The notes beneath the pieces were generated by a model. It was not told the origin of the DNA. It searched no databases and was given only the letters and a program-made list of their open reading frames with translations. Below are positions 1 through 40,310 of a stretch of DNA of 43,765 nt, piece after piece. Position 1 is the first letter of the stretch. Every line of letters starts with the position of its first letter. Origin of the DNA: a virus; UHGV virus genome UHGV-0479438; one strand, written 5' to 3'. The translations under genes were made by a program, and so were the position numbers.

Positions 1-72
1 GGCGGGGTTCAACTCCCCGGACAGACCATGGTGGAAAGTAAGAGGGTGCCGGTTCAACTCCGGCCGCCGCCA
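1..72 (+). other. 3' part of a tRNA-like element; paralogue of 35934..36023 whose 5' part is at the window end
   Basis: Hairpin CGGGG-TTCAACT-CCCCG, then 25-72 identical to 35976-36023. This includes the T-arm GCCGG-TTCAACT-CCGGC and the acceptor 3' strand CGCCGCC plus A. Confidence 0.5.
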
Positions 73-152
73 ACTTAAGGTTTACATTTGAAAAATGGTC
101 TTGTGTTAAACTTTTCAGATATGACAATTAAAGAAGAGGAGATGGGTACAGA

Positions 153-2502: not shown

Positions 2503-2538
2503 GAGCGGTGGACACCCGCCAAGATGATTCCACCGCTC
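2503..2538 (+). promoter_or_regulatory. perfect 10-bp inverted repeat (GAGCGGTGGA / TCCACCGCTC, 16-nt loop) just upstream of the recombinase gene
   Basis: Seen directly in the sequence. No T-run follows, so it is a regulatory or recombinase-binding hairpin rather than a classic terminator. Confidence 0.4.
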
Positions 2539-2609
2539 CCGTAAATACGTCTGAGTATATTATACCTTACTCAAACGTGAAAATCAATACGAATGAGGAG
2601 GATATAATT

Positions 2610-3656
2610 ATGAGTACACAGACAATAAAAGCCGAAATCATCAACAATGTACTGGTAGCAATGTCCTTATATATCATGGAGCAGCAGACTCTTACCATTC
2701 TGCAAAATGTAATGCAGCAGGAATTGGTTAGGGTGAACATGGAAGAAATAACTACACTTCCAGTAGAAAGAAAAGATGATATAAGTCAACGGAATCAGTA
2801 CATAATACAGTTATTCCTGATTAAAAAGCGTGATTTAGCAAGAGGAACCAAAGAAAACTATCTTAATTCCATACGAAGATTACTGACAGAGATAAGCACA
2901 AAATCACTCGACCAGATGGACACCACTGATATTGATTGGTATTTATCGCGATATGAAATCAGAAATGTGTCCAGTGGAGGAATGAAAAACCAGCCTAGCA
3001 CTTATAATAACGAGCGCCGTTTTTTGTCAGCATTCTTTACATGGATGCGCCTTGAGAAGCTTATTACAGATAATCCGGTAGAGTCTATACCGGCTAAAAA
3101 AGTACCCATTAAACCAATTGATTACTACAGCCCGGAAGAATCTGCAAGATTAAGGGATGCGTGCAAAAATATCCGCGAGAGGGCCTTGCTGGAGGTACTT
3201 CGAAGTACTGGAGCCAGGATAGGGGAGATTGCAGAAATAACTCTGGACCAGATAGACATGAGAACCGGCGATATTTGGATACAGGGAGAGAAAGGCGGAA
3301 GATATCGGACTATCTATCTGGATGATGATGCGCGTCATTACTACGGCCTGTATTTGGACAGCAGGAAAGATGATTGTCCATATATGTTCCCACGCTCCAG
3401 AAAACCGTATGGAAAGATGACTACTTGTGGATTTCGGGCGATATTGAAAACCATAAGGAAAAGAGCCGGTCTAACATGTCGGGTATATCCGCATAAGTCA
3501 CGCAAGACGCTGGGAATGAATCTGAAAAACAGAGGAGTTGATATTGGGACCATACAGGAAATTATGGGCCATGCAGACCCAGGAGTTACGGCACGTTATT
3601 ATGCACAGTCTAACCCGCGCACTCTTCGTTCAGTAAGAGAAAGAGTTAATGTGTAG
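2610..3656 (+). CDS. tyrosine site-specific recombinase (second phage-integrase/Xer-family gene)
   Basis: Box I LRSTGARIGEI, box II HKSRKTLG, and a C-terminal GHADPGVTARYY with the catalytic Tyr. ATG 2610 has RBS GAGGAGGA. The track ORF begins at GTG 2508 inside the hairpin. Confidence 0.8.
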   Translation: MSTQTIKAEIINNVLVAMSLYIMEQQTLTILQNVMQQELVRVNMEEITTLPVERKDDISQRNQYIIQLFLIKKRDLARGTKENYLNSIRRLLTEISTKSLDQMDTTDIDWYLSRYEIRNVSSGGMKNQPSTYNNERRFLSAFFTWMRLEKLITDNPVESIPAKKVPIKPIDYYSPEESARLRDACKNIRERALLEVLRSTGARIGEIAEITLDQIDMRTGDIWIQGEKGGRYRTIYLDDDARHYYGLYLDSRKDDCPYMFPRSRKPYGKMTTCGFRAILKTIRKRAGLTCRVYPHKSRKTLGMNLKNRGVDIGTIQEIMGHADPGVTARYYAQSNPRTLRSVRERVNV

Positions 3657-4495: not shown

Positions 4496-4921
4496 GTGGT
4501 GATTGTGGCTTCCAGATTAACAGATAAACAGAAAAAGAAAATAATAGCTGATTATGTGGAATCTGGAAGCTATCGTGCCACAGCAAAAAAATTCGGTGTT
4601 TCAGATAACACAGTAAAAAACATATGCGCAAAAAGTGCAGATATTGCGCAGAAGTGCGCACAAAAAAAAGAACAGAACACAGCTGATATGTTGGCATATA
4701 TGGATTCCAGGAAAGAACAAGCACAGGGTATTATTGATAAATATCTTGAAAAGCTGGCGGACCCGCATAAGCTAGAAAATGCTACTATCTCCCAAATTGC
4801 AACAGCGATGGGGATAGTAGTTGATAAGTTTATGGATAATACAAAAAAGGGAGAAAATGCACAAGGAGTCACTATACTGAATGATATACCAAAACCGGAG
4901 AAAGGGAATGATGATGCATGA
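4496..4921 (+). CDS. terminase small subunit
   Basis: HTH-containing (ADYVESGSYRATAKKFGVSDNTVKN) 141-aa protein. It is translationally coupled to terL by an ATGA overlap at 4918. A start at GTG 4505 is also possible. Confidence 0.55.
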   Translation: MVIVASRLTDKQKKKIIADYVESGSYRATAKKFGVSDNTVKNICAKSADIAQKCAQKKEQNTADMLAYMDSRKEQAQGIIDKYLEKLADPHKLENATISQIATAMGIVVDKFMDNTKKGENAQGVTILNDIPKPEKGNDDA

Positions 4922-7921: not shown

Positions 7922-9139
7922 ATGTTAAGCCCTGAGTACCTTGCAAGAATCGCAGAAGGAAGCGAAGAAATAGCCTCACAGCTCCATACATACATTATCC
8001 GTCAGATAATAGACCGCATGATGATACGCATAGGCCGTGGCGATGATTACCTGCTCACCTCCTCTGACCGATGGCGCATACAGATATTGCAGGATGCAGG
8101 ATATCTGCTGGAGGACATAACGGTAGAGTTATCCAAAATCACTAAGCGGCAGGAAAAAGAAATCAAGGGCGCAATGGAAGAAGCGGGAGTCAAGGCCCTG
8201 GAATACGACCATAAAATATATGAAGCTGCTGGTTTGTCTCCAATTCCTCTTACTCAATCTCCGCAGCTTATCAGACTGATGGAGCGGAACATGGATGCAA
8301 CAATGGGAGAGTGGGAAAACTATACCAGAACGACCGCAGAAGCTGCACAAAGGCTTTTTATTAATGAATGCGACAATGCCTACCACCTTGTATCTTCTGG
8401 GGCTGTATCTTACACACAGTCCGTCAAAGAGGCAGTTAATAATGTGGTATCGGGAGGAGTGATAGTACACTATCCTTCGGGCCATAAAGACACCATAGAA
8501 ACTGCTACGGCGCGCGCAGTACGTACCGGAGTAGCCCAGGCCACGGGAGATATATCTATTAAGCGCATGGAGGAAATGGACTGGGATATCATACTGGTGT
8601 CGGCGCACATCGGGGCCAGAACCGGTGACGGAGGGCAGAATCCGGGCAATCATTTATGGTGGCAAGGGCAGTTTTATAGCAGGACTGGAAAGGATAAGCG
8701 CTTTCCTCCATTTTCCCAGACTGGATACGGAACAGGTGAAGGGTTATGTGGATGGAACTGCCGTCACTCATTCGGTAGCGGTGATGGGGTAAACAATCCA
8801 TATAAAGACATCCAAACCGCAGACAATTACAAGGTTGAGCAGCTGGAGAAGCGACAGAGAACGCTTGAACGGCGCATCAGAAAGACCAAACGCGAAGTCA
8901 TGGGGATGCAGGAGGCCGTAGATAAATGTAAGGATGAACCGGCTAAATTTGAAATGCAGCTTGACCTTGGCCGAAAGTCGTATCTGTTACAGCGGCAGAA
9001 TAAAGCATACAACGAATTTTGCACAGAGAACAACTTGCGCACCCAACAGGAACGGTTGCAGATTGCAAAATGGAACCGGGAGCAGGCGGCAAAGGATAGG
9101 GGCGCAGCGCGGCGGTATCAGAATGCGAAAGGGGAATGA
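7922..9139 (+). CDS. head morphogenesis / minor capsid protein
   Basis: 405 aa after the portal with RBS AAGAAGGAAGAG. C-terminal coiled-coil and Arg-rich tail. Assigned by synteny. Confidence 0.5.
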   Translation: MLSPEYLARIAEGSEEIASQLHTYIIRQIIDRMMIRIGRGDDYLLTSSDRWRIQILQDAGYLLEDITVELSKITKRQEKEIKGAMEEAGVKALEYDHKIYEAAGLSPIPLTQSPQLIRLMERNMDATMGEWENYTRTTAEAAQRLFINECDNAYHLVSSGAVSYTQSVKEAVNNVVSGGVIVHYPSGHKDTIETATARAVRTGVAQATGDISIKRMEEMDWDIILVSAHIGARTGDGGQNPGNHLWWQGQFYSRTGKDKRFPPFSQTGYGTGEGLCGWNCRHSFGSGDGVNNPYKDIQTADNYKVEQLEKRQRTLERRIRKTKREVMGMQEAVDKCKDEPAKFEMQLDLGRKSYLLQRQNKAYNEFCTENNLRTQQERLQIAKWNREQAAKDRGAARRYQNAKGE

Positions 9140-9672
9140 TTATGGATGAGGTATGGAAAGATATACCCGGTTATGAGGGATTGTACCAGGTGAGTAATTT
9201 AGGGCGAGTTAAAAGCTTTCGAGGGAGTGCAAAATTTGGGAAGCCCGAAGAACTGATTTTAAAACCATCTTTAATTAATTCCGGGTATCATGTTGTAACG
9301 CTTTATTCCAAGAACCGAGAAAAACATAAATTTCAAGTTCATAGGCTTGTGGCAGAAACTTTTATTGATAACCCCAATAGTTTTCCGTGCGTTAATCACA
9401 AGGATGAGGATAAATTAAATAACTGTGTTTCAAACCTTGAATGGTGTACATATCAGTACAACAATAATTATGGAACCGCAAGAATACGAGCTGTTGAGAG
9501 TACAAGGAAAGCTATCATGCAAATGACATTAGATGGAATCCCTATTGCTACATATCGCTCTGTCACAATAGCTTCTGAATTACTAAAGTATTCTCCGTCA
9601 AGTTTACGAAAATGGTGTGATTCTGGCATTGGAGGAGGATATAAATGGAGGTACAGCAATGAACCGATTTAA
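9136..9672 (+). CDS. HNH endonuclease with NUMOD4 motif
   Basis: N-terminal WKDIPGYEGLYQVSNLGRVKS matches NUMOD4. HNH-type His and Asn residues follow (HRLVAETF...NHKD...NLEW). Confidence 0.7.
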   Translation: MIMDEVWKDIPGYEGLYQVSNLGRVKSFRGSAKFGKPEELILKPSLINSGYHVVTLYSKNREKHKFQVHRLVAETFIDNPNSFPCVNHKDEDKLNNCVSNLEWCTYQYNNNYGTARIRAVESTRKAIMQMTLDGIPIATYRSVTIASELLKYSPSSLRKWCDSGIGGGYKWRYSNEPI

Positions 9673-12176: not shown

Positions 12177-12382
12177 ATCGGAACGAGCAGTTTTACGATA
12201 ATCTTGCCCTATATGCAACAGCATTACAAATGATTGATGTGTTTTTGCTTTTAGGAGAAGCTTCCAATAATGATATTATGGAAGCGCTTCAACAGCAAAA
12301 TAAAGAATACATGGAAAAGATTATCGACCAGAACAACCGCATATTGCGTATCTTGTCCGAAAAGGACATGTCTACTGAATAG
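12146..12382 (+). CDS. doubtful small ORF (possible start at in-frame ATG 12230)
   Basis: Overlaps the previous gene by 30 nt and has no clear RBS. Confidence 0.25.
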   Translation: MWMQQWMRMLNRNEQFYDNLALYATALQMIDVFLLLGEASNNDIMEALQQQNKEYMEKIIDQNNRILRILSEKDMSTE

Positions 12383-12447
12383 TAGTATTACACACATGGA
12401 GGGGTAGGCACAGGCTTGCCCTTCTGTGCATATAAGGAGGAATTATT

Positions 12448-12846
12448 ATGGCAGATTTTGTAACTGCTGGTACACAGACCGTTGAAGTCAATGCAAGTGT
12501 TTTGTTTGCAGCAAACCGGATATATTCTTGCAATTGTCCAAACATAAGACATGAGCCACTTTCTGGGAGAGTAGTTTTACTTCCTGGCCTGTACCGTGTA
12601 GGATTTAACGGAAACTTTTCCGCAGCTGCGGCAGGAGATGTAATTTTTGAAATACAGCAGGACGGCGAAGGTATTCCCGGTGCAAGAATCCAGAACACAG
12701 TTGCCGCCGGCGCAACAATCAATGGAGCGGCAACTGTAGAAGTAAGGGTGTGCAAACCATGTTGCGCTACCCTATCGGTAAAAAACGTTGGAGCCACAGC
12801 GGCGACGGTATCAGACGCTAACCTTGTTGTTAGCAGAATAGGTTAA
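12448..12846 (+). CDS. hypothetical Gly/Ala-rich beta-type protein
   Basis: Strong RBS TAAGGAGGAATTATT. 132 aa. Confidence 0.55.
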   Translation: MADFVTAGTQTVEVNASVLFAANRIYSCNCPNIRHEPLSGRVVLLPGLYRVGFNGNFSAAAAGDVIFEIQQDGEGIPGARIQNTVAAGATINGAATVEVRVCKPCCATLSVKNVGATAATVSDANLVVSRIG

Positions 12847-14191: not shown

Positions 14192-14520
14192 TATTTTATG
14201 ATATACAGCACTTCCGCATCTTTTAAAATAACTTCCCCCGCATCAAAACCGTACTCGTAGTTATAGCCTCCAATCAGAGCAATGTAGGAACCAAAATATC
14301 CGTTACCCTTAAGAGATTCGGCGGCTTCTGGGGCGTTTAAATCAATGGCGCATACACCGTTCAGTTCTTCGTCTGTTTCCTCTTCGTCAATCCACACCTT
14401 CGATTTATGGTCCATAGGTCCAGGTTCAAATGGCAGTTCTTGAATGCGGATTCCAAACCTACTATATTTAATATCCCAATCGTTGCTATCTATCATTTCT
14501 TTTAACTCGGCTACTGTCAT
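14191..14520 (-). CDS. hypothetical acidic protein, first gene of the minus-strand cassette
   Basis: 109 aa, translationally coupled to the HTH gene. No recognisable domain. Confidence 0.5.
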   Translation of the reverse strand: MTVAELKEMIDSNDWDIKYSRFGIRIQELPFEPGPMDHKSKVWIDEEETDEELNGVCAIDLNAPEAAESLKGNGYFGSYIALIGGYNYEYGFDAGEVILKDAEVLYIIK

Positions 14521-14916: not shown

Positions 14917-15115
14917 ATATTTGACCTCCCTCCTATAGCACATGTCCTTAAAAGAAACAGGTTCTAGCGCATAGCGTGAACAGCCTGGAGGTTGAAAAGC
15001 GGATGCAATTTCCGGCATGTGCGTTTTTGGACAAGTCAAGTCCTACAAAATGGCAACCGTTGGTGGACGGTTACACACCTACAAATAACCTAATAACGGA
15101 AAAGGAGAATCATCA

Positions 15116-15739
15116 ATGAAAACCGAAGAATTAAAAGCACAGGGATTGACAGAGGAACAGATATCATTTGTCATGGCTGAAAATGGAAAAGACCTCAAAA
15201 AGTTGCAGAAAGAAAACGACAATCTGAGCGTGGACCGGGACACCTGGAAAGAGAAAGCAGAAGCGGCAGAAACAACGCTTAAAGGCTTTGAAGGGGTTGA
15301 CCTGGAGACGATGCAGAAAGAACTGTCTGACTGGAAACAGAAAGCTACAGAAGCCGAAAAGAGCGCCCAGGCACAGCTTTATGAACGTGATTTTGCAGAT
15401 GCTCTTAAAACAGAATTTGAGGGTATTAAGTTTTCCAGCGAAGCGGCTAAACGTGCAATCATGGCAGAAGTAAAAGAGGCCGGATTAAAGCTGAAGGATG
15501 GTAAAATTCTGGGGCTGAATGACCTTATAGGCCAAATGAAAGAAAAGGATGCTTCGGCATTTATTGATGATGCGCAGCAACAGGCACAGCGGAACATGGC
15601 GAGGTTTACCGCACCATTGGGTAAGCAGAATGCGCCAGGAACTATGACACGAAAGGATATTGAAGCGATTAAAGACCCATCAGAGCGTCAGTCTGCAATC
15701 GCCAGTAACCTACATTTGTTTGGTAAAGGAGAACAGTAA
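15116..15739 (+). CDS. scaffolding protein
   Basis: Coiled-coil, K/E-rich 207-aa protein directly upstream of the major capsid gene, joined by an ATG overlap. RBS AAAGGAGAATC. Confidence 0.55.
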   Translation: MKTEELKAQGLTEEQISFVMAENGKDLKKLQKENDNLSVDRDTWKEKAEAAETTLKGFEGVDLETMQKELSDWKQKATEAEKSAQAQLYERDFADALKTEFEGIKFSSEAAKRAIMAEVKEAGLKLKDGKILGLNDLIGQMKEKDASAFIDDAQQQAQRNMARFTAPLGKQNAPGTMTRKDIEAIKDPSERQSAIASNLHLFGKGEQ

Positions 15740-16911
15740 TGGCAGCAAAAGCCAATATAATCAAAAGCGCGGACATACAGGTTACAGCGCGTGAAATTGA
15801 TTTTGTGACACGCTTTGAAAGGAACTGGCAGCATCTTCGGGACATTCTGGGGATTATGCGCCCCATCAAGAAAACGCCGGGGGCAGTGCTGAAAAGCAAA
15901 TATGCAGAAGGAACTTTACAGAGCGGGGCTGTAGGCGAAGGAGAGGAAATCCCTTACAGCAAATTCACAGTAAAGGAAAAGACGTATGCGGAAATGACCA
16001 TTGAGAAGTATGCAAAGGCCGTTTCCATTGAAGCAATTAAAGACCACGGCTATGAAAATGCCGTTCAGATGACAGACGATGAATTTTTGTTCCAGCTTCA
16101 GTCGAATGTAACAGAACGATTCTATACATATCTGAATACTGGTACACTTACTGGAACGGAAACTACATTCCAGATGGCCCTTGCTATGGCAAAAGGAATG
16201 GTAGAAAACAAATTCAAACAGATGCACCGTAATGTTACGGGGGTGGTTGGATTTGTGAATATTCTGGATGTATATCAGTACCTGGGTGCCGCTGAAATCA
16301 CTGTGCAGAATCAGTTTGGTTTCCAGTATCTTAAGGATTTCATGGGATTCAATACAATCTTTCTGCTATCTGATTCTGAAATAGAAAGTGGAAAAGTAAT
16401 AGCTACACCAGTGGAAAACATTGTAATGTACTATGTAGACCCAAACGAAAGTGATTTTGCACGTGCCGGTCTGGTGTATACGACTGGGGACGGGGATACA
16501 AACCTTATCGGATTCCATACCCAGGGTAATTACAATACCGCTGTTTCCGAAGCATTTGCAATCATGGGACTTACCTTGTTTGCAGAATATATTGACGGAA
16601 TCGCAGTTGTTGATATTACTGATAATCCCGTTCTTGGAACACTGACGGTAACTTCTTCGGCCGGAAGCACATCAGGAAACACAAAATTAACCGTTGAACC
16701 TCCCCTCGAAACAGGACACATGTACAAGTACAAAGTGGCAACTGATTCCGCTCCAGAAGTGAAATATGGTCAGAATGTAAAGACGTGGACAGCATGGGAC
16801 GGTAAATCTGATATCAAGGCAACGACCGGGAATCATATCACAGTAGTTGAGTGTGACAATACCTATAAGGCGTTGAAATCTGGAAATGACGATGTAACGT
16901 CTCACTCTTAA
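15739..16911 (+). CDS. major capsid protein
   Basis: 390 aa, follows the scaffold gene. Size and position are typical. Confidence 0.7.
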   Translation: MAAKANIIKSADIQVTAREIDFVTRFERNWQHLRDILGIMRPIKKTPGAVLKSKYAEGTLQSGAVGEGEEIPYSKFTVKEKTYAEMTIEKYAKAVSIEAIKDHGYENAVQMTDDEFLFQLQSNVTERFYTYLNTGTLTGTETTFQMALAMAKGMVENKFKQMHRNVTGVVGFVNILDVYQYLGAAEITVQNQFGFQYLKDFMGFNTIFLLSDSEIESGKVIATPVENIVMYYVDPNESDFARAGLVYTTGDGDTNLIGFHTQGNYNTAVSEAFAIMGLTLFAEYIDGIAVVDITDNPVLGTLTVTSSAGSTSGNTKLTVEPPLETGHMYKYKVATDSAPEVKYGQNVKTWTAWDGKSDIKATTGNHITVVECDNTYKALKSGNDDVTSHS

Positions 16912-28005: not shown

Positions 28006-28131
28006 ATGTATACAACATTAAAAAGGCTATATAACAATGGTAAAGGGCCATTAACGCTTTCCGAACTCAACCGGGCCGTGTCAATTGGATGGATTACAGA
28101 CCAGCAGAAAAACAGCATAATTGGAGGATGA
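28006..28131 (+). CDS. XkdX-family small protein
   Basis: 41 aa MYTTLKRLYNNGKG...AVSIGWITDQQKNSI. Typical XkdX signature and position before the lysis gene. RBS GGAGGTG. Confidence 0.45.
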   Translation: MYTTLKRLYNNGKGPLTLSELNRAVSIGWITDQQKNSIIGG

Positions 28132-28133
28132 TT

Positions 28134-28874
28134 ATGAGAGATATCACATTGTGCCATCCACGCTTACAGCTTTTAGCAGGTCAATTGGTGGACGAATGCA
28201 ATAAACAGGGATTAAAAATTAAAATAGGTGAGACACTGCGGACCGTGGCAGAACAGGATGCTTTATACGCTCAGGGTAGGACTAAACCGGGTAACATTGT
28301 AACTAATGCTCCTGGCAGCAGCTACAGCTCCTATCATCAGTGGGGAACGGCTTTTGATATATTCCGCAATGATGGCGCTGGAGCTTATAACGAAATAGGC
28401 GGCTTCTTTAACCGTGTGGGTGCTATTGGCGTATCTATCGGTCTTGAATGGGGAGGAAACTGGAAGTCTCCTGTGGACAAGCCACATTTTCAACTTCCTG
28501 ATTGGGGCAGCTCTACTAGTGGTATCAAGAAATTGTACCAAAATCCAGAACAATTCATGAAAACCTGGACTGAGCAGGAGCGCACTGGCTGGATTAAGGA
28601 TAATAACGGCTGGTGGTACCGCAGACCAGATGGAACTTACCCGGCTAATAAGTGGTGTATCATAAATCACCATTGGTACCTATTTAACAAAGACGGGTAT
28701 GCTTGCACTAGCTGGCACCGCTGGAATGGCAGTGTGTGCGACCCAGAGGACGGCTCAGGTGACTGGTACTATTTCGACCCAACATCAGATGGTCCGCTGG
28801 AGGGGGCCTGCTGGCATAGTCAGGAAAATGGTTCGCAGGGAATCTGGTACATAGAGGATTCCGATTCAATATAA
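28134..28874 (+). CDS. endolysin: M15-type L-Ala-D-Glu/VanY-like peptidase plus C-terminal cell-wall-binding repeats
   Basis: N-terminal HPRLQLL...HQWGTAFD...DKPHFQLPDW zinc-peptidase motifs. GW/WYY repeats (GWIKDNNGWWYRRPDG, HHWYLFNKDGY). RBS GGAGGATGATT. Confidence 0.75.
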   Translation: MRDITLCHPRLQLLAGQLVDECNKQGLKIKIGETLRTVAEQDALYAQGRTKPGNIVTNAPGSSYSSYHQWGTAFDIFRNDGAGAYNEIGGFFNRVGAIGVSIGLEWGGNWKSPVDKPHFQLPDWGSSTSGIKKLYQNPEQFMKTWTEQERTGWIKDNNGWWYRRPDGTYPANKWCIINHHWYLFNKDGYACTSWHRWNGSVCDPEDGSGDWYYFDPTSDGPLEGACWHSQENGSQGIWYIEDSDSI

Positions 28875-28949: not shown

Positions 28950-29012
28950 GAGCCTACAAACCGCATAAAACCGTTGTATTTTACGGGTCCGATTCCCGTC
29001 AGCAGCTTTTCC

Positions 29013-29160: not shown

Positions 29161-30246
29161 TTACATACTGTTCAATTTCTCAAAGTGCTTATTAATTTTT
29201 TTATTTTGCCGGACGGTTTCAGAGTCAATTGCATTTCTGTATACGGTTTTCATGATATTATCGCTGGCCCATCCTCCCCGCTGCAAAATATATTGGTCTG
29301 GTATCCCTATGGCGTGCATAATGGATGCAGCATAATGCCGTAGGTCATGGAACCGGAAGTGGGGTATATCAATTTTTTTGAGTACACGTCCGAATCGGTG
29401 TGTGATGTAATCCGGGTTCATATCAACCAGTTTTCCTTTTTTTTCAGATATCCGGTCAATTACAAATGCTGGCATTTCTACGTCCCGCGTACTATCATCC
29501 GTTTTAGGCTGTTTGATGTACCATTGATTATCTGGCCCTTTGACCATATTGTCTCTTACATGGATTATCTTTCCGTCCACGTTCTTGTCGGTTAGGGCGC
29601 TTATTTCTCCGCGCCTGAGTGGTCCAAAGGCTGCTAGTAAAACAGCTATTTCTAAATCAGTACCTTTGATTGCCTCCAGCAGCTTTTTAATATCATTGTC
29701 ATTGGGGCAATATAAGTCAGGACGTTTTTTTTGAGGCAGCTTAACGTTTAAAGTTAATTCGGGTGCAAACATTTCCAGTGTTGGAGATAACAGACCATAG
29801 GCATTTCTTACCGTCTTTGGAGATAGTTTTTTTGCAGCTAAATTACTTACCCATATTTGCACAGATGGACTTGTCAGTTCAGAAAGCTTTTTTTGGCCAA
29901 ATGCTCCGCCGAAATACTGTCTTTGCAGACCAGTGTACCCTCTAAGCGTAGAAGGGCTTAAAACACCTCTCTTGGCGCTTAAATAGCGTTCAATAGCATC
30001 ATTGACTGTAATATCTTCTTCCTCTTCCGGTACGTTGTATTGTTCTATGGGCTTATCTTTCATGTCTAATTTCCATCTGGTAGCCATTTCCCTTGCTTCC
30101 TTGCGTGATGGAGCAACAAAGCTTTTGTAATGCCGCTTGCCTTTATCATCTGTATACAGATACACTTGCACTCGGACATTTCCAGACGGCAGTACTCCTT
30201 TTTTCTTTTTCGGGGCTTTTGTAGTCATTTCTCTTTCCTCCTTCAA
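29161..30246 (-). CDS. int: tyrosine integrase (phage integrase family)
   Basis: LLAAFGPLRRGEISAL (box I), FRFHDLRHYAAS (box II), GWASDNIMKTVYRNA (catalytic Tyr). 361 aa. Confidence 0.85.
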   Translation of the reverse strand: MKEEREMTTKAPKKKKGVLPSGNVRVQVYLYTDDKGKRHYKSFVAPSRKEAREMATRWKLDMKDKPIEQYNVPEEEEDITVNDAIERYLSAKRGVLSPSTLRGYTGLQRQYFGGAFGQKKLSELTSPSVQIWVSNLAAKKLSPKTVRNAYGLLSPTLEMFAPELTLNVKLPQKKRPDLYCPNDNDIKKLLEAIKGTDLEIAVLLAAFGPLRRGEISALTDKNVDGKIIHVRDNMVKGPDNQWYIKQPKTDDSTRDVEMPAFVIDRISEKKGKLVDMNPDYITHRFGRVLKKIDIPHFRFHDLRHYAASIMHAIGIPDQYILQRGGWASDNIMKTVYRNAIDSETVRQNKKINKHFEKLNSM

Positions 30247-30399
30247 TTGATTTCCCTAAAAATAGGTATAAAAAATACAGCTCCGCAAATATCTTGCAAA
30301 GCCGCCCCGAAGATGGTACAATATAGGTGCGAATTATAGTGCATATCTTCGGGTATGTAGGCCGGTTCCTGTTGGCGCAGGGGCCGGTTTATTTTGTTA

Positions 30400-30428
30400 T
30401 TGAAAATTTTCTATGTTTGATATATAAT
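30400..30428 (+). promoter_or_regulatory. sigma-A-type promoter TTGAAA-17-TATAAT
   Basis: Hexamers at 30400-30405 and 30423-30428 with 17-nt spacing. Faces the terminator at 30487. Confidence 0.4.
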
Positions 30429-30486
30429 ATACTTAACAAGAGAACCGATGACTAGCTGAAACCTAGCCACCCCGGTATATGTAAAA

Positions 30487-30526
30487 AATAACGCCTTACT
30501 TTACCAGAGCGAGGGCGTTATTTTTT
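30487..30526. terminator. bidirectional terminator (AATAACGCC...GGCGTTATT flanked by A-run and T-run)
   Basis: 9-bp perfect stem with an 18-nt loop. A6 on the 5' side and T6 on the 3' side. Confidence 0.5.
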
Positions 30527-30841
30527 ATGCTTAACAAGAGTTATGACTGCTACGAGCATGATAACAAATGTAAATAAGTCATTAAAAGTAACGTACATAA
30601 GCACCAGCCCCTTTCTCTTAAGAGTAGGTGGCTAGAATAGCGCCCCATCGGTTCCCAGGGTAAGTATATTATATTATATTATCAAAGTTCTTTGTGATTA
30701 GGAAACACGGGCGTGCCTGATTACTCGTATCCTGATATGTACTTTCCTGGAAAAAACGCCCAGCGCAATTTTGCTCTCGGCTAATTGCCCTACATACCTT
30801 TTGATATTACGCAATGTGTCCCATGTCGAAACATAAGTTAA

Positions 30842-31207
30842 TTAATAGATTATAGGAAAGCCATTTGAATCCGTAAGGGTTCCGGTTATTTTTAATTTGA
30901 ACAAGTCAATTAGTATACCAATATAACATAGGCCAATGGTAAATGTAAATAAAAGTCCCTTTTTGAAATTTCCAATGTAAAACTGATATAATCCAGAACA
31001 TAAAATGGGAATAAGTGATAATCCTATAATAAAATCACTTTTCGCCATTCCTCCAATCAAAGCCAGTGGAATAGCAATAAATGGTATTGACATAAGTTTA
31101 ATAACTACCTTTTTCTTTTTTGGGCTGGCTACTGTATTTATTCCCTTTAAACCTTCTTTGATTCCTGCCCCTAAATCCTTCCCATATTCCGTTGCATCAA
31201 TTTTCAT
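30842..31207 (-). CDS. TM2-domain small membrane protein
   Basis: Two transmembrane segments. C-terminal GLLFTFTIGLCYIGILIDLFKL resembles the TM2 signature. Confidence 0.5.
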   Translation of the reverse strand: MKIDATEYGKDLGAGIKEGLKGINTVASPKKKKVVIKLMSIPFIAIPLALIGGMAKSDFIIGLSLIPILCSGLYQFYIGNFKKGLLFTFTIGLCYIGILIDLFKLKITGTLTDSNGFPIIY

Positions 31208-31253
31208 ATTCGTTTGCTTCTCCTTTGCATTTTATTAAAACGCCTGGGGCGAA

Positions 31254-32345
31254 TTAATCTATTTTGATGTGTATTCCCTGTTTTTTTGCTTCTTCAACTA
31301 TTTTGATGAAATTTTTACTTTTTGAGTTTTTCATTCTCATATAACCATTAAATGATTTTGGAGCAATTTCAGGAATAGCGTATTTTATACGATAGTATGT
31401 TTTTTCGTCATTACTTATATAAGGACGATTATTAAATTCATTCTTCTTTTTTAACTCTAAATAATTTTTTCTTTCTAAGTCGTTCCTATCATCCTCTATA
31501 AATGGACGATTGCTTATTGTGATTGCATCAAGTTCTTCTCCCCGATAGTCTATAGTGTTATAATCAGGAAAATAGAATGGTCTAGCCATAGTATGGCACT
31601 CGTCACAGACTTTTCCAGTCTTTTTTACAAATTCAGGTAACTTAGGAAAACGTTTATCCCGTCCAGAAATGCAATACACCCTTCCATGATATGTTGCACA
31701 TTTTGAACAACAAGCACCATCATAAAAAATCTCAAGATAATCTATTTTGAAAAGCTTACATTGATTCAAGTCATGAAAAAATAATTTTTGAGATAATGTG
31801 TCATAAGGATAAGCTTGTTTTCTTTGGATTTCTTTATAAATTTTATGAATACGTTTCTCTTCTTCTTCGGATTCCTCAAAACGGCCTTCCCTCAATAAGT
31901 CTTTTGCAAAATATAAATAAGTCTTTTCATCGTATGATATCCCAGAGGCTTGCATTAAGTCAATAGCTTTGCGATAACATTCATCGGATTCTGAAACAAG
32001 CCCTTTTTTTCTTAAATTTCCGGCTTTCATTCTCATAACATAATCAAGAGAGCCTGTTACTCCATATCCTGCCATTACATCGAAAAGTCCAAATTTTGGT
32101 ACAACTATTCTCCGCAAGTCCTCTACATTTTCCAAATCATACATCACACCATCAGAAACAAGGTATTTTGCATCATACCAACCATTTTCATCTGTTGGAT
32201 AGACCTTATACATCATACCATTATTAAAATAAATAGTCTTTCCATTTGGGATAGTATTGTCATTAGAAAGTCCTTGATTATGTTCTTTTATTGACCGAGT
32301 ACTTTCCAATTTAAATTTGTCTAATAATGCATCGAAAATATTCAT
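31254..32345 (-). CDS. hypothetical 363-aa protein with Cys/His zinc-binding cluster
   Basis: CCSKCATYHGRVYC...CDECH motif. No recognisable enzymatic domain. Lies in the repressor operon. Confidence 0.55.
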   Translation of the reverse strand: MNIFDALLDKFKLESTRSIKEHNQGLSNDNTIPNGKTIYFNNGMMYKVYPTDENGWYDAKYLVSDGVMYDLENVEDLRRIVVPKFGLFDVMAGYGVTGSLDYVMRMKAGNLRKKGLVSESDECYRKAIDLMQASGISYDEKTYLYFAKDLLREGRFEESEEEEKRIHKIYKEIQRKQAYPYDTLSQKLFFHDLNQCKLFKIDYLEIFYDGACCSKCATYHGRVYCISGRDKRFPKLPEFVKKTGKVCDECHTMARPFYFPDYNTIDYRGEELDAITISNRPFIEDDRNDLERKNYLELKKKNEFNNRPYISNDEKTYYRIKYAIPEIAPKSFNGYMRMKNSKSKNFIKIVEEAKKQGIHIKID

Positions 32346-32366
32346 CCATGTGCCTCCAATCCATTT

Positions 32367-32837
32367 TCAAAATCGCACATTTGATTCAATATTCTGTTTA
32401 AAATCAAAAAGTTTTTCTTTGTATCCTGTTAGACTAGCAAGCTGTTCTTTGTTTAACCCTGGATTTTCAACAATAATTTTATCTGATATTAATAGTTCAG
32501 CAGCAAATATATTGGCCTCTTTCTCCGGTTTGGCAAGATTAAATAAAGTACCACCAAAAAACATGCATTCACTTCCTTTATGTAATATTCCATGACCAAC
32601 TTCGTGAGCTAAGACTATATCAATGTATTTTTTATCTGTTATTTTTGAATTAATACATATGCATGGTACTCCTTTATACTCGATGTAGTAACCTGAATAT
32701 TTCCCCAAGTCATTTTTTTGTATAATCATGTCTAAATAGTCTGCAATTTCAAATGGATTTCTGGTATTGTATTTTTCGACCAGTTTCAAAACGGTATCTT
32801 TAATAATCTCCAAATTGCTACTCTCCAAAGCCATCAT
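32367..32837 (-). CDS. ImmA/IrrE-family metallopeptidase
   Basis: HEXXH zinc motif within DIVLAHEVGHGILH. Size and position immediately downstream of the XRE repressor gene. Confidence 0.7.
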   Translation of the reverse strand: MMALESSNLEIIKDTVLKLVEKYNTRNPFEIADYLDMIIQKNDLGKYSGYYIEYKGVPCICINSKITDKKYIDIVLAHEVGHGILHKGSECMFFGGTLFNLAKPEKEANIFAAELLISDKIIVENPGLNKEQLASLTGYKEKLFDFKQNIESNVRF

Positions 32838-33240
32838 GCTTTTTTTTGATAATAGCTGCCCTGCAAAGTGATAATAGCGAGTCTCTTAATAATTTGTCCT
32901 CATCTTCATCCCCTGAATAATCCTCTCCATTAAACCTCAGGACAACTGTTTCTTTGTTCCTTATGCGGTCCATAATTTTGTCAACATCAGTAATAACATT
33001 AAGCTCTTCTGATTCAGAAAGAGTGGGCTTCTTTGCTTCTGGGGCTTCCTCCTTCCCAGTCATTAGATAGTCAATAGTGACTCCAAAGTAATTTGCAATT
33101 ATTCTTCCTATTTCTGGCCCCACAAGCGAATGCTTTTTTTTCCAAGTGTAGATTGTTGATTGGGATACGCCTGTGTCTTTACAGAATTTATAAGCCGTTA
33201 TCCCAAACTTTTTCAGAAGTAGTTCAAAAACTTCGTACAT
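32818..33240 (-). CDS. XRE-family HTH repressor (cI-like)
   Basis: N-terminal HTH (LLKKFGITAYKFCKDTGVSQSTIYTWKK). Overlaps the ImmA start. Divergent from the early promoter. Confidence 0.7.
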   Translation of the reverse strand: MYEVFELLLKKFGITAYKFCKDTGVSQSTIYTWKKKHSLVGPEIGRIIANYFGVTIDYLMTGKEEAPEAKKPTLSESEELNVITDVDKIMDRIRNKETVVLRFNGEDYSGDEDEDKLLRDSLLSLCRAAIIKKKHDGFGE

Positions 33241-33256
33241 TGTTACCCCTTTCTTT

Positions 33257-33271
33257 GTATTTTAAAAATAC
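33257..33271. promoter_or_regulatory. perfect 15-bp palindrome GTATTTTAAAAATAC (operator candidate)
   Basis: Seen directly. Lies 17 nt upstream of the repressor start codon. Confidence 0.4.
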
Positions 33272-33296
33272 ATCGAAAAAACACAATAAAAAAGTA

Positions 33297-33325
33297 TTGA
33301 CTACCTCGGTGTATAGTGGTATAGT
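33297..33325 (+). promoter_or_regulatory. rightward early promoter TTGACT-17-TATAGT
   Basis: Consensus-like hexamers with 17-nt spacing. Overlapped by the palindrome GTATAGTATATCTATAC. Confidence 0.45.
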
Positions 33326-33335
33326 ATATCTATAC
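33319..33335. promoter_or_regulatory. 17-bp palindrome GTATAG-TATAT-CTATAC overlapping the -10 (operator candidate)
   Basis: Arms are exact reverse complements. Shares a GTAT...ATAC frame with the 33257 palindrome. Confidence 0.4.
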
Positions 33336-33527
33336 AGCGGTAGAACGATGTAAAATCAATGCCATTGTATTGGTTTAGTGATGTACCTCGTCTGGTAAAC
33401 TTAGTATATCACTAAACCGAAGTAAACGCAAGTATTATTTAGGAGGTGAGGCTAATATTCAAAAAAATTATTGAGCATTACAGGAATATGAGCAGAGAAC
33501 AGCGGAAAGAGTGCATACAAACCTCGG

Positions 33528-33854
33528 TCATAGCTGCTGTGACAACCATTGTAATACGTTTATTACTATATTGGTTAGGATGGTCACAATTATAGGACAA
33601 AGTACAGAATCAAACCTATGTTCCGAATGATAATTGATGTACTCATATCCAATGCTATGAACTCTGTAGTATTCCGTAGGACGTGGGCGTCCGTTTTCGG
33701 TTAGGATGTTTTCAATTAAAGATTTTTTGACGAGAACTTTGTAATGCTTGTGAGAATCTATATCAATTATACGAACCCGTTTTCTGATTCTGATATGGGT
33801 CAATGCAATTTTATCGCAAAAAGAAATATGAATTGTACTTACATCAATAGCCAT
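33528..33854 (-). CDS. doubtful hypothetical protein
   Basis: ORF antisense to the presumed early transcript. No clear RBS. Confidence 0.3.
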   Translation of the reverse strand: MAIDVSTIHISFCDKIALTHIRIRKRVRIIDIDSHKHYKVLVKKSLIENILTENGRPRPTEYYRVHSIGYEYINYHSEHRFDSVLCPIIVTILTNIVINVLQWLSQQL

Positions 33855-33922
33855 ATGGTAAACCTCGTTTTTATCTGATTATATGGCTAAACCATGCAAA
33901 ACGCAAGAAAGGAAGTGATAAA

Positions 33923-34105
33923 TTGTCGAAAATGTATACCTGCGAACAGGTAGCTGATAGATACGCTGTACAGGTCATTACTGTATGGGATTGGATTCGA
34001 AAAAAGAAACTATCAGCAATCAAGATTGGTAGGGAGTACCGTATAAGTGAAGATGATATAAAAGCGTTTGAGGATTCCAGGCGTACTACCAACAGTATTT
34101 CTTAG
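33923..34105 (+). CDS. excisionase-like HTH (MerR/Xis-type) DNA-binding protein
   Basis: YTCEQVADRYAVQVITVWDWIRKKKLSAIKIGREYRI matches the HTH_17/excisionase pattern. Confidence 0.5.
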   Translation: MSKMYTCEQVADRYAVQVITVWDWIRKKKLSAIKIGREYRISEDDIKAFEDSRRTTNSIS

Positions 34106-34113
34106 AATAGGAG

Positions 34114-34296
34114 GTGAGTAGATTGGAAAAAACAAATATATCAAAAATTATTGAATCTCTTTCTGGATTAAAACACCATGAGTGGAAGTCGATTGAATCG
34201 GCGGTAAATCGTGAATTTGACGCCATGTCAAACCGACTTGAACTCACGGATGTATCGAAGATTCAGAAAATGGTTCTCAACGAAATTATTCATTGA
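34114..34296 (+). CDS. hypothetical small protein
   Basis: RBS AGGAGGTGAG. Confidence 0.3.
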   Translation: MSRLEKTNISKIIESLSGLKHHEWKSIESAVNREFDAMSNRLELTDVSKIQKMVLNEIIH

Positions 34297-34480
34297 CAAT
34301 CTGAATCATTGACGGATGGATTCGATAAGTTTTTTCTTGATAAAAGATATTTACATGGTCATATTTACATAAATCTTGAACTTGCTCTTTGAAATATGTA
34401 ATTGGCTCTGTTTCATCTATGAGTCCATCTGATGTGATGTCAGTCCAGTTTCCTAAAAGATTAGCATAAATGCGGTGCAT
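34286..34480 (-). CDS. doubtful small ORF
   Basis: ORF track only. Confidence 0.2.
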   Translation of the reverse strand: MHRIYANLLGNWTDITSDGLIDETEPITYFKEQVQDLCKYDHVNIFYQEKTYRIHPSMIQIVNE

Positions 34481-34574
34481 AAAATCACTCCTTTCTATGT
34501 ACTCGGCGCGGCAACGCCTGTATATACAGTATAGGACAGGGGGAGAAAAAAGACAAGCAAGGAGGACTCATAAA

Positions 34575-35102
34575 ATGAACGATTTAACAAGAACAACCAT
34601 TACATCAATGGAAGCTGCGGAGTGGTGCGGTAAGAAACACAATGAATTACTGAAAGATATTCGGCGCTATATCAGCCAATTAGGAGAGGGGAAAATTCCC
34701 CACACCGATTTCTTTCAGGAATCCACTTACATAACGGAGCAGAACAAAACCCTTCCCTGCTTCCTGGTCACGAAGAAAGGCTGTGAGTTCATAGCCCACA
34801 AGATGACCGGACAGAAGGGAACAGAATTCACAGCGCGGTACATTAACCGATTCCATGACATGGAAAATCAATCGAAACAGATTTCAATTACAGAGCATCC
34901 GGGAGAAGTAGCAAACCTAATCAAAATCCTTTCTAACAGGATGGACAAGCAGGGGAGTGCCCCTTACAAGTCCGTTGAAATGGCATGGATGGTTTGTGAG
35001 CAGTACGGTATCAATCTTCCTGCGGATATTGTGAGGGTTCCAGAATATGAGCAACTGAATCTTGATAATTTTATAAACAATAAAAGGAGCATAAATGGAT
35101 GA
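34575..35102 (+). CDS. Rha-family phage regulatory protein / antirepressor
   Basis: N-terminal MNDLTRTTITSMEAAEWCGKKHNELLKDIRRYI is the phage_pRha signature. RBS CAAGGAGGAC. In frame with track ORF 34470..35102. Confidence 0.6.
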   Translation: MNDLTRTTITSMEAAEWCGKKHNELLKDIRRYISQLGEGKIPHTDFFQESTYITEQNKTLPCFLVTKKGCEFIAHKMTGQKGTEFTARYINRFHDMENQSKQISITEHPGEVANLIKILSNRMDKQGSAPYKSVEMAWMVCEQYGINLPADIVRVPEYEQLNLDNFINNKRSING

Positions 35103-35389
35103 ACGGACCAAAGTTTAGGTTAGTCAGTGATGGAAAACATTCTTATTTTGAAGTATGTGGAAAGTCTATGGGCAAAGGCATTTCGTCTGTTTCATATATT
35201 CACGAAGCGGGTAAAAATCCAGAAGTTAGTATTTCTTTTGATTTGCATGATTTTGAATTTATGGAAGATGGGAAGGTTGACAGGGTAACAGTTGATATGG
35301 TAGCAGGTGATTTGCAAGACAGAGAGCCGTCCAGTAAGAACGACACCTCTGAACAAAATCAGTTACCACCTTGGTTAGGAAAAAACTAA
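35099..35389 (+). CDS. hypothetical protein
   Basis: ATGG overlap with the previous gene. Confidence 0.4.
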   Translation: MNGPKFRLVSDGKHSYFEVCGKSMGKGISSVSYIHEAGKNPEVSISFDLHDFEFMEDGKVDRVTVDMVAGDLQDREPSSKNDTSEQNQLPPWLGKN

Positions 35390-35517
35390 CATTTAAAATG
35401 CCCCGGCGGTGCTACGAACACCAACCGGAGCCGTAACCACATTAACCGAACTAATGCGGATACAGGAATATTTTACCATTTTCTCCTGTATTACGCAAGC
35501 ACAGGAGGAAAATATTT

Positions 35518-35784
35518 ATGAACATTGAAAACCAGAAGGACAAGCCAACATGGGAAGGGCTGGAGCAGTATTTTGCTGTAGAGGTAATCGAGCAGAGCAA
35601 GAGGAATGCAAAGCATTGGTTTATAGCGTTCCTGGTAACGCTGGCGGCGCTAATAGGCACCAATGCCGCATGGCTTTATACTGCCAGTACATATGATTAT
35701 GTTTCCCAGGATGGCACCGGACTGAACAACATCAACACAGGAACACAAGGAGACTTAGAGAATGGGACAGAAAGCCAGGATTAA
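35518..35784 (+). CDS. small single-pass membrane protein
   Basis: RBS GGAGGAAAATATTT. Transmembrane segment WFIAFLVTLAALIGTNAAWLY. Confidence 0.35.
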   Translation: MNIENQKDKPTWEGLEQYFAVEVIEQSKRNAKHWFIAFLVTLAALIGTNAAWLYTASTYDYVSQDGTGLNNINTGTQGDLENGTESQD

Positions 35785-35832
35785 GAAGAACGGCAAGAGC
35801 CGGGGAATTAAGAGGAAGAGAAGGAGATAAAC

Positions 35833-35931
35833 GATGTACATCAATCCATTTTTTGCAGGAGTTGTTTGCACTGTTTTTGCAGAGATACTAATAATTATAG
35901 CAATAGCGATTTACCGGTATTTTAAGAGTTA
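35833..35931 (+). CDS. 32-aa hydrophobic micro-protein
   Basis: RBS AAGGAGATAAACG plus ATG. MYINPFFAGVVCTVFAEILIIIAIAIYRYFKS. Ends 2 nt before the tRNA-like element. Confidence 0.25.
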
Positions 35932-35933
35932 AT

Positions 35934-36023
35934 GGCGGTGTGTGGCACACAGGTCCAGGTTCGATTCCTGGCATAACCATGGTGGAAAGTAAGAGGGTGC
36001 CGGTTCAACTCCGGCCGCCGCCA
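35934..36023 (+). ncRNA. 90-nt tRNA-like element with a 7-bp acceptor stem and canonical T-arm but a non-canonical core
   Basis: 5' GGCGGTG pairs with 3' CGCCGCC (one G-U), discriminator A. T-arm is GCCGG-TTCAACT-CCGGC. There is a second T-arm-like hairpin, CCAGG-TTCGATT-CCTGG, and a 27-nt segment that I cannot fold as a standard cloverleaf. Confidence 0.5.
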
Positions 36024-36049
36024 ACTTAACATTTTGATGGAGGCGTGGA

Positions 36050-36223
36050 ATGAAAAAACAGAAGGTAGTGAGAACATATCCGAACAATTATGCAAATCCT
36101 ATGACTGCTCTTAGAGAAATCCTGGATAAAGGTTGGATAGTGGTCATGTGCAATGAAACATATTTAGAAGATAATCACACCTGCCTGGAGTATATTCTGG
36201 AAAAGGATATCCCAGAGAATTAG
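36050..36223 (+). CDS. hypothetical 57-aa protein
   Basis: RBS GGAGGCGTGGA plus ATG. Confidence 0.3.
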   Translation: MKKQKVVRTYPNNYANPMTALREILDKGWIVVMCNETYLEDNHTCLEYILEKDIPEN

Positions 36224-36246
36224 TATTTTCAGAAGAAAGGAAAACT

Positions 36247-36993: not shown

Positions 36994-37009
36994 AATTTTG
37001 GAGGTAAAG

Positions 37010-37129
37010 GTGGACAAAGAAAGTAAACCATGTGAATCATGTAGATTTAAACCGGAATGCAGGTATGCGCATGATTTTGAGGTAGAGGAGTGCAAGGATT
37101 GGGGAGCGAGAGAGGAAGATGAGGAATGA
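37010..37129 (+). CDS. Cys-rich micro-ORF 1 (about 39 aa; coordinates +/-1)
   Basis: RBS GGAGGTAAAG plus GTG. Translates to VDKESKPCESCRFKPECRYAHDFEVEECKDW... Confidence 0.3.
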   Translation: MDKESKPCESCRFKPECRYAHDFEVEECKDWGAREEDEE

Positions 37130-37238
37130 AGAGAAAACGGAAAAAACAGTGTCACGCAAAAGGAAAGGTGATAGCCTGGCCTGGGCGTATGAACAGGTGC
37201 AGGAAGAGTGATTGTAAAAAGTGTCATTGCTATTATTA
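37119..37238 (+). CDS. Cys-rich micro-ORF 2 (about 39 aa; coordinates +/-1)
   Basis: Translates to MRNEEKTEKQCHAKGKVIAWPGRMNRCRKSDCKKCHCYY. Overlaps ORF 1. Confidence 0.25.
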
Positions 37239-37254
37239 ACATTTTGGAGGTCAA

Positions 37255-37347: not shown

Positions 37348-37366
37348 ACATTAAGGAGGAAGTGGA

Positions 37367-39038: not shown

Positions 39039-39050
39039 AGAGGTGATTAT

Positions 39051-40295: not shown

Positions 40296-40310
40296 GAAAG
40301 GAGGGATTAT

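Follow-up and report, generated by a model that had tools for sequence, protein, structure and literature searches.

The virus genome UHGV-0479438, analysed here over its whole length of 43,765 nucleotides (nt) and called the window, carries two copies of a compact tRNA-shaped element on its + strand. The element fits no RNA family described so far, and we class it as a new form of tRNA-like RNA. Its ends form the acceptor stem, T-arm and discriminator of a tRNA, and its centre holds a hairpin that resembles a second T-arm. Copy B is complete (90 nt, 35934–36023). Copy A (91 nt once joined) is divided between the two ends of the window, which is one complete, circularly permuted phage genome linearised inside this copy. 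The explanation we prefer, to which we give a probability somewhat below one half (roughly 0.45), is that the element is a non-decoding phage mimic of tRNA whose maturation would rely on RNase P, RNase Z and the CCA-adding enzyme and whose specificity module would be the central hairpin. The idea that it could be a new kind of tRNA-derived RNA, raised in an initial annotation made from the DNA letters, stays an inference.

Anatomy of the two copies

Copy B scores 120.7 bits with the covariance model of the family (R1). Its acceptor 5′ strand GGCGGTG (35934–35940) forms 7 bp with CGCCGCC (36016–36022), one of them a U6-G wobble. The internal segment that follows, TGTGGCACACAGGT (35941–35954), has two candidate pairings, a 4-bp hairpin (TGTG-GCA-CACA) or a helix with 35977–35984. 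The allele-defining hairpin CCAGG-TTCGATT-CCTGG (35955–35971) is a T-arm look-alike at the position of an anticodon arm. It is followed by CATA and a purine-rich segment of 23 nt with GG motifs, ACCATGGTGGAAAGTAAGAGGGT (together 35972–35998), and by the canonical T-arm GCCGG-TTCAACT-CCGGC (35999–36015). The acceptor 3′ strand, the discriminator A (36023) and the trailer ACTTAA complete the element (36016–36029), and no CCA is encoded.

Copy A is built from the same parts. Its first 19 nt (GGCGGTGTGTGGTACACAG, 43747–43765) match R1 positions 1–19 and are cut at the window end; the 3′ part (1–72, +) matches positions 20–90 with 80.5 bits. The acceptor 5′ strand GGCGGTG (43747–43753) continues into TGTGGTACACAG, followed by the hairpin CGGGG-TTCAACT-CCCCG (3–19) with GACAGA after it, the invariant purine-rich segment (25–47), the T-arm GCCGG-TTCAACT-CCGGC (48–64), the acceptor 3′ strand CGCCGCC (65–71), the discriminator A (72) and the conserved trailer ACTTAA (73–78). 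In both copies the T-arm is preceded by AGGGT.

Except for T in place of C13, the 5′ part of copy A repeats nt 1–19 of copy B. Positions 25–72 repeat the last 48 nt of copy B exactly, and a repeat search extended this identity to 78 and 36029, 54 nt in total. The initial annotation had described all of these identities correctly, only starting copy A one base too far in, at 43748; 19 nt need 43747. Its description of two paralogues that differ in a single hairpin is also essentially right. Besides the hairpin (CGGGG-TTCAACT-CCCCG in A, CCAGG-TTCGATT-CCTGG in B), however, the copies differ at position 13, at position 21 (T in A, G in B; absent from that description) and in the 5–6 nt directly 3′ of the hairpin (GACAGA in A, CATA-A in B). 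A candidate third copy at 14401–14427 was rejected as a chance match to a 12-nt seed without a T-arm.

The element tested as a tRNA

The 7-bp acceptor, the 5-bp T-stem, the GTTCRA loop (TTCAACT or TTCGACT) and the discriminator are all of tRNA form, and every pair is standard, with one U-G. The Rfam tRNA model (RF00005) nevertheless gives only 26.0 bits for allele B and 26.2 bits for allele A (in locus L028), compared with a threshold of 29. In both alleles it aligns the acceptor stem, AGG-T-arm and discriminator and leaves the D-arm and anticodon arm unaligned. With default, transfer-messenger RNA (tmRNA), intron, mitochondrial and -ps settings, ARAGORN found no tRNA or tmRNA in the window or across the joined junction; only -ps80 returned a call, an implausible one with a 4-nt ‘anticodon’. 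The earlier failure to fold the copies as standard cloverleafs is borne out by these two programs. A D-arm with G18G19 (3–4 bp stem, 7–11 nt loop) is absent, the 14 nt between acceptor and hairpin allowing at best a 4-bp stem with a 3-nt loop.

The sequence of the central hairpin agrees with the T-arm consensus G-TTCRA-NN-C. Taken as an anticodon loop, its loop has U33, and position 37 is U in alleles B and C or C in allele A. This position is a purine in 848 of the 874 tRNAs (97%) that ARAGORN called in the phage loci we fetched, and the genuine Leu-CAA and Ser-CGA loops among them are CTCAAAA and CTCGAAA. The purine at position 37 is described as strictly conserved (PMC7812866). The codon usage of the genome reveals no demand for UCG, its rarest Ser codon (7.5%), or for UUG, which is unremarkable (17.5%). 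Because of its T-arm consensus, the pyrimidine at position 37, the comparison with phage tRNA loops and the rarity of UCG, we conclude that the central hairpin is a T-arm look-alike and not a decoding arm. The proposal that both hairpin loops follow the T-loop and not the anticodon-loop pattern therefore stands.

These results bear directly on the reading of the copies as unorthodox tRNAs of class II size, in which one body, charged by anticodon-indifferent LeuRS or SerRS, reads UUG in allele A (CAA, Leu) and UCG in alleles B and C (CGA, Ser). The hairpin does offer U33 with CAA or CGA, both of them class II anticodons, and 90–91 nt falls within the class II length of 85–93 nt. Discriminator A is the Leu identity base, the 5-bp hairpin inserted in allele C occupies the position of a class II variable arm, and ARAGORN calls some other double-T-arm sequences (see below) tRNA-Leu(caa) or tRNA-Ser(cga). 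We nevertheless regard such tRNAs as improbable. U or C at position 37 and U at position 38 depart from CTCAAAA and CTCGAAA, the D-arm with G18G19 is missing, ARAGORN is negative at default and relaxed settings, and RF00005 stays below threshold without aligning the D and anticodon arms. Neither of the two codons is one for which the genome has a special need, and a single body with two anticodons would miscode for one of them.

Fold and strand

The established structure consists of the acceptor stem, the central hairpin and the T-arm only. All five pairs of the central hairpin are kept between alleles A and B through two double, compensatory substitutions. Pairing is specific to the + strand: the U6-G acceptor wobble and a G-U variant of the T-stem pair only in + strand RNA, and the folding energy is −34.6 kcal/mol for the + strand versus −28.9 kcal/mol for its complement. 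For nt 8–21 there are three mutually exclusive candidate pairings, all within 1–2 kcal/mol of one another, the best two being a local hairpin of nt 8–18 (TGTG-GYA-CACA) and a helix between 13–20 and 44–51. The third, GTGGT/ACCAT, was checked by hand only and is contradicted by C13 and by the T10-to-C change of type C.

A family with three alleles

We searched IMG/VR, JGI/ENA metagenomes and GTDB genomes with exact, degenerate and gapped patterns, together with an exact-protein look-up. This gave about 60 copies, which lie in phage and prophage contigs; those from metagenomes come from the human gut. Only three alleles, A, B and C, occur among them. Type C (103 nt) has the B hairpin, a 14-nt hairpin CAGTC-TGCG-GACTG (5 bp, 4-nt loop) inserted immediately 3′ of it, and C in place of T10; it was found in three IMG/VR contigs (L187, about 4750–4850, − strand; L188; L189).

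Conservation within the family is extreme, the copies being 97–100% identical. Allele differences aside, we saw only eight single-base variants. The purine-rich segment shows only three changes in the roughly 60 copies, each confined to a single contig or lineage, and ACTT of the trailer is kept in nearly all copies. Across 21 distinct type B loci the mean pairwise identity is 97–99.7% for the element versus 62–82% for the 420 nt upstream. The T-loop TTCAACT (window 48–64 and 35999–36015) is common to both copies and to the copy in a 43.5-kb contig (L001), and nearly all others read TTCGACT there. This points to gene conversion within the pair or to a lineage-specific co-change.

The family is also sharply bounded. 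Its members score 113–121 bits with R1. No other sequence exceeds 32 bits, and the hundreds of phage tRNAs scored lie between about 15 and 32 bits. Pattern scans for diverged homologues returned near-identical copies of the three alleles only, and the model found nothing between 32 and 113 bits. One further sequence (L040) resembles the element in layout, and the 4 bp of its first hairpin covary fully; at 30 bits it scores no better than ordinary tRNAs and was not counted as a homologue. Rfam at its gathering thresholds assigns no family to the elements, its only hits in the window being RAGATH-21 and GP20-b, which lie elsewhere. In E-value mode the elements give sub-threshold matches to tRNA, mascRNA, permuted tmRNA and Y RNA, all driven by the T-arms. 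GenBank phages contained no match to the element, and full-text literature searches turned up no account of an RNA of this kind. With no entry in Rfam and no call by tRNA finders, the family goes unannotated in gut viromes.

Other sequences with two T-arms are frequent. A scan of IMG/VR with GGTTCRANTCC-N24-48-GGTTCRANTCC gave at least 120 loci (L034–L152), with 127 matches among those listed. Of these listed matches, 39 are called as a tRNA plus an extra T-arm and 6 as a single tRNA or tmRNA. Another 48 are uncalled and have an acceptor-like closing stem of 6–7 bp, often within phage tRNA clusters, as in the AGTCAGG...CCTGACTA group of L055, L062, L069, L114 and L150; the remaining 34 are uncalled and have no closing stem. 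Non-canonical tRNA-like genes, whether or not they are kin to the element family, may thus be widespread in phages.

Two individual loci deserve mention. L027 encodes, at 2343–2434 (− strand), an odd 92-nt RNA that ARAGORN calls tRNA-Ser(gga). Its D-arm is normal and a CCA is encoded, the anticodon region is aberrant, and its T-arm, GCCGGTTCGATTCCGGC, almost equals that of the element, which lies 1.8 kb away on the same contig. The 171-kb IMG/VR contig L153 has a run of at least three tRNA-like units at 12250–12460 (+ strand), each with a T-arm and a 7-bp closing stem and none called by ARAGORN; one of them, TGGTGAGAGACAGGAAGGT plus its T-arm, resembles the purine-rich linker and T-arm of the element.

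Comparison with known tRNA-like RNAs

Class II tRNAs (tRNA-Leu and tRNA-Ser; RF00005) share with the element the 7-bp acceptor, the 5-bp T-stem, the GTTCRA T-loop, the discriminator and a length of about 90 nt. The element also lacks an encoded CCA, as do the neighbouring host tRNA genes, and presumably uses the same maturation enzymes. It differs from class II tRNAs in having no D-arm, a pyrimidine at position 37, a T-loop in place of the anticodon loop and an extra invariant purine-rich segment of 23 nt, and in lying below the Rfam threshold and escaping ARAGORN.

YrlA and other bacterial Y RNAs are tRNA-mimicking partners of Ro60/Rsr, and M. smegmatis YrlA, which has a 7-bp acceptor-like stem, is cleaved by RNase P and acquires CCA (PMC4201824). 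Like the element, YrlA is a non-decoding RNA with a tRNA-like module and a true T-arm, before which the element has a short hairpin, and some YrlA RNAs are phage-encoded. Unlike YrlA, the element has two T-arms and its termini are the acceptor stem itself. The Ro60-binding terminal helix with its GNCGAAN0-1G motif (PMC4201824) is not found in the element, which contains no GNCGAA, and none of the 30 open reading frames (ORFs) of the window that we scanned against Pfam, including all neighbours of both copies, is a TROVE/Rsr gene. The Deinococcus_Y_RNA model gives 15.2 bits (E = 3.1), far under its threshold of 80, a weak match that stems from the short hairpin ahead of the T-arm.

The tRNA-like domain of tmRNA likewise combines an acceptor and T-arm with a short unpaired substitute for the D-loop and a T-loop TTCRACT. 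If the 13–20/44–51 pairing of the element is real, a long helix would extend from the junction at the position of the anticodon stem, again as in tmRNA. The element nevertheless has neither pseudoknots nor a tag reading frame, for which 90 nt leave no room, and its pair 3-70 is C-G instead of the Ala identity pair G3-U70. The weak match to tmRNA_permuted covers the T-arm only, and the tmRNA search of ARAGORN was negative.

The proposed biogenesis, in which RNase P and RNase Z release the RNA from a longer transcript and CCA is then added, recalls mascRNA of the MALAT1 type. That family is eukaryotic, however, and has no homology to the element: its model matches the 5′ half weakly (22 bits, threshold 42.5) and needs four non-pairing acceptor positions. 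Mitochondrial tRNAs without a D-arm also have a short replacement loop after the acceptor, and as in these an L-shape would need other contacts. They decode through ordinary anticodon loops with purine 37, whereas the element has a T-loop there and a long linker before the T-arm. The element has the minihelix of a processing substrate, yet it fails the identity tests for tRNA, Y RNA, tmRNA and mascRNA.

A proposed non-decoding tRNA mimic

RNase P, RNase Z and the CCA-adding enzyme recognise 12 stacked base pairs, a T-loop and a discriminator, in the absence of CCA. The element holds exactly this minihelix: its acceptor stacked on the T-arm would give the 12 bp, and T-loop and discriminator are in place with no CCA. 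The tRNA genes adjoining related prophages are likewise without an encoded CCA, and maturation by RNase Z and the CCA-adding enzyme is for this reason the route to be expected in the host. We propose that the element would be transcribed together with the early rightward genes, cleaved at its 5′ end by RNase P and after the discriminator by RNase Z, and given its CCA by the host enzyme. The product would then remain as a stable tRNA mimic that decodes no codon. Its exchangeable T-arm-like hairpin, of type A, B or C, would be read by a host or phage tRNA-binding factor, for which a tRNA-targeting defence toxin, a T-box leader or a T-arm-modifying enzyme are candidates.

We favour a non-decoding mimic because the decoding parts are missing or changed, conservation of the interior extends base for base and the alleles are discrete. 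A processing signal or a relic of recombination would not need such an interior or discrete alleles. Phage tRNAs and RNA decoys are now coming to light as means of countering bacterial immune systems that target tRNA. The element would also be a compact, experimentally tractable tRNA mimic that keeps the features required for maturation, has its decoding arm swapped for a second T-arm and is conserved across mosaic gut phages.

A more specific version is that the family represents a new class of phage tRNA mimics in which the second T-arm replaces the anticodon arm and which, once matured by the host tRNA-processing enzymes, titrate or misdirect a host factor sensing the shape of tRNAs. Such a factor could be a tRNA-targeting defence toxin acting on the acceptor end or the elbow, a T-box leader, or an enzyme or chaperone that modifies or assists the T-arm. 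The RNA would then be a device for counter-defence or host takeover. We consider this version doubtful. Other ARAGORN-negative double-T-arm sequences in IMG/VR might be further members of the same functional class; with at least 120 loci showing the two-T-loop pattern, such genes may be common in phages.

A number of observations weigh against a mimic. Most related contigs have one copy only, and for this reason the A/B pair is not a fixed feature; the initial annotation described two paralogues, and a third allele also exists. No partner protein (Ro60, RtcB, a ligase, a nucleotidyltransferase or another tRNA-related protein) was found among the 30 ORFs scanned. The minimum free energies are no better than those of shuffled sequence (z = −1.05 and −0.69), which is also typical of tRNAs. 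Over 12 distinct variants the two best interior candidates pair equally well, the local hairpin being broken by two variant lineages and the long helix by one, and the near-invariance of the family leaves almost no covariation. This near-invariance could reflect recent spread and gene conversion instead of selection on every base. The constant position of the element, 9–94 nt upstream of a variable cassette, suits a cis-acting or recombinational role equally well, and a decoy target is pure conjecture.

Genomic context and alternative roles

Upstream of type B copies lies a conserved gene of 88 amino acids (aa), followed by a hydrophobic ORF of 32 aa that ends 1 nt before the element. In the window this strongly hydrophobic ORF (MYINPFFAGVVCTVFAEILIIIAIAIYRYFKS) occupies 35834–35932 (+ strand) and has a GGAG ribosome-binding site. 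Almost every type B copy has the 3′ end of this ORF conserved upstream, and the ORF could encode a small membrane peptide translated from an mRNA that terminates in the tRNA-like fold. Downstream of alleles A and B, at least 12 different small gene cassettes start 9–94 nt after the element (mostly 26–34 nt), and identical cassettes are found after A and after B. The neighbouring proteins are ordinary early or accessory phage proteins (Rha, DUF5131, HNH nuclease, LexA-like, YopX, DUF551), and apart from the type B upstream context no neighbour gene is linked to the element across loci. Promoter and terminator scans around both copies gave matches at chance level only, and the purine-rich segment has no antisense targets in the genome beyond chance.

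A DUF5131 gene (phage Gp37/Gp68 family) is encoded at 36247–36993 (+ strand), 224 nt downstream of copy B. Over 780 nt it is 97–99% identical to genes of Enterocloster phages of about 100 kb, which are otherwise unrelated over a 13.8-kb query (window 30000–43765). It looks like a recently exchanged cassette.

This arrangement would suit a cis-acting punctuation or processing signal, in which the fold recruits RNase P and RNase Z to cut the early polycistronic transcript and thereby controls how stable or how well translated the message of the variable gene downstream is, with no function left for the excised RNA. An acceptor stem with a T-arm is precisely what these enzymes require. The element always lies within a + strand operon at the distances given above, there ahead of a ribosome-binding site and start codon. 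The same cassettes follow both alleles, a convincing dedicated promoter or terminator was not found, and RNase P does cut an RNA with a comparable 7-bp stem, M. smegmatis YrlA (PMC4201824). We nevertheless consider this role unlikely. The minihelix alone would suffice for RNase P and RNase Z, which leaves the conservation of 58 interior nt and the compensated hairpin alleles unexplained. Cleavage by RNase Z would also leave a 5′-monophosphate on the downstream mRNA, which is usually destabilising in Firmicutes.

The exchange of cassettes could also point to a function of the DNA itself, the conserved 90 bp being a hotspot of homologous or site-specific recombination that shuffles cassettes, and the fold a relic of a captured tRNA gene. 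Mosaic sequence flanks the conserved block, and identical cassettes after A and B are what recombination within the common 54-bp 3′ half would produce. The T-loop variant private to both copies of one genome indicates gene conversion. The window further encodes a second tyrosine recombinase, at 2508–3656, which is equally present in relatives without the element. A hotspot of this kind seems to us quite improbable: homologous recombination needs no strand-specific G-U acceptor helix, no compensatory hairpin changes and no perfect T-arm consensus, and a relic would decay, whereas the element is far better conserved than the genes next to it.

The positions of the two copies recall, finally, the put RNAs of phage HK022, leader RNAs for processive antitermination that act in cis on the transcribing RNA polymerase, here with one copy per long operon. 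The two similar copies share a strand, B being placed among the early rightward genes, about 1.8 kb in, and A just ahead of roughly 28 kb of + strand genes that reach into the late region, with a weak promoter-like site 12 nt upstream of A. The promoter match is at chance level, however, and most related genomes have a single copy. The 7-bp acceptor, the double T-arm consensus and the discriminator are traits of a tRNA-processing substrate that are not known in polymerase-binding RNAs, and we judge antitermination to be very improbable. The non-decoding tRNA mimic remains the explanation that we prefer.

Genome topology and the true attachment site

The last 3000 nt of the window followed by its first 3000 nt match an ENA scaffold (ERZ28601249 scaffold_227, 43,903 bp; locus L181) without gaps and with 100% identity over 6000 nt; this scaffold is another public record and may not be independent of the source of the window. 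Both flanks around an intact copy of the element are also present on the IMG/VR locus L028. Base for base, the end-to-start join is the ‘type A’ sequence that runs uninterrupted in more than 20 other contigs. The window encodes one of each phage module: small terminase, large terminase, portal region, minor/major capsid region, lysin, integrase, divergent regulators and early genes. A tape-measure-sized ORF of 933 aa, outside the Pfam scan, is assigned by size and position alone.

Because the ends are contiguous in L181 and L028, the modules occur once each and the phage attachment site (attP) is uninterrupted, the window is a single complete genome, circularly permuted and opened within copy A of the element. 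A 54-nt exact repeat together with a perfectly complementary cut cannot be due to chance. The initial annotation had drawn the same conclusion from the way the ends complete each other. The unit of a tandem repeat, which it offered as a second option, is unnecessary with every phage module present once. The phage is a temperate, siphovirus-type phage of human-gut Lachnospiraceae, and its nearest cultured relatives at the DNA level are Enterocloster and Blautia phages.

The attP core, ACGGGTCCGATTCCCGTCAGCAGCTT (28983–29008), lies between the lysin gene (28089–28874) and the integrase gene (29161–30246, − strand). Its 26 nt are identical to the 3′ terminus of the tRNA-Thr(GGU) gene beside related prophages (L010, 814–888; L158, 14185–14259) and occur only once in the window. 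The lysin-attP-int arrangement is uninterrupted and vegetative, and the order noticed earlier on the DNA is now tied to a defined core.

tRNA genes are common integration sites of phages, and the 3′ part of the tRNA gene is duplicated in the process. The 54-bp identities had been offered, as a less favoured alternative, as the attL and attR left by integration of a prophage into a tRNA gene. An attachment site should have its core beside the integrase gene and be identical to the 3′ part of a host tRNA. The sequence at 28983–29008 has both properties; the elements do not, and they lie 5.7–14 kb away from it, within early genes. The window ends continue into phage DNA and not into host DNA. When the 3′ 25 nt of the element were sought in 185,579 species genomes, no bacterial tRNA matched, the only hit being one Lachnospiraceae metagenome-assembled genome that contains the element itself. 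The location of attP and the read-through of the join in L181 refute this alternative, to which we attach practically no weight.

Other features of the genome

Two known RNA families precede the scaffold- and capsid-like genes (15116–16911), directly upstream of them. RAGATH-21 (RF03097) lies at 14937–15023 (+ strand; 83.5 bits, threshold 70.3), and GP20-b (RF03003), which starts 5 nt past it, at 15029–15092 (+ strand; 40.9 bits, threshold 36.2). The second tyrosine recombinase (2508–3656, + strand) has Phage_integrase and SAM-like N-terminal domains, is encoded upstream of the terminase genes and is additional to the integrase at 29161–30246; a 348-aa equivalent occurs in relatives with and without the tRNA-like element. 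In one relative (L183, 10843–12166) the large terminase is called as Terminase_3 followed by Terminase_3C, with a NUMOD4/HNH endonuclease gene between them, which suggests an insertion of the homing-endonuclease or intron type. The window has its own NUMOD4/HNH gene elsewhere, at 9136–9672.

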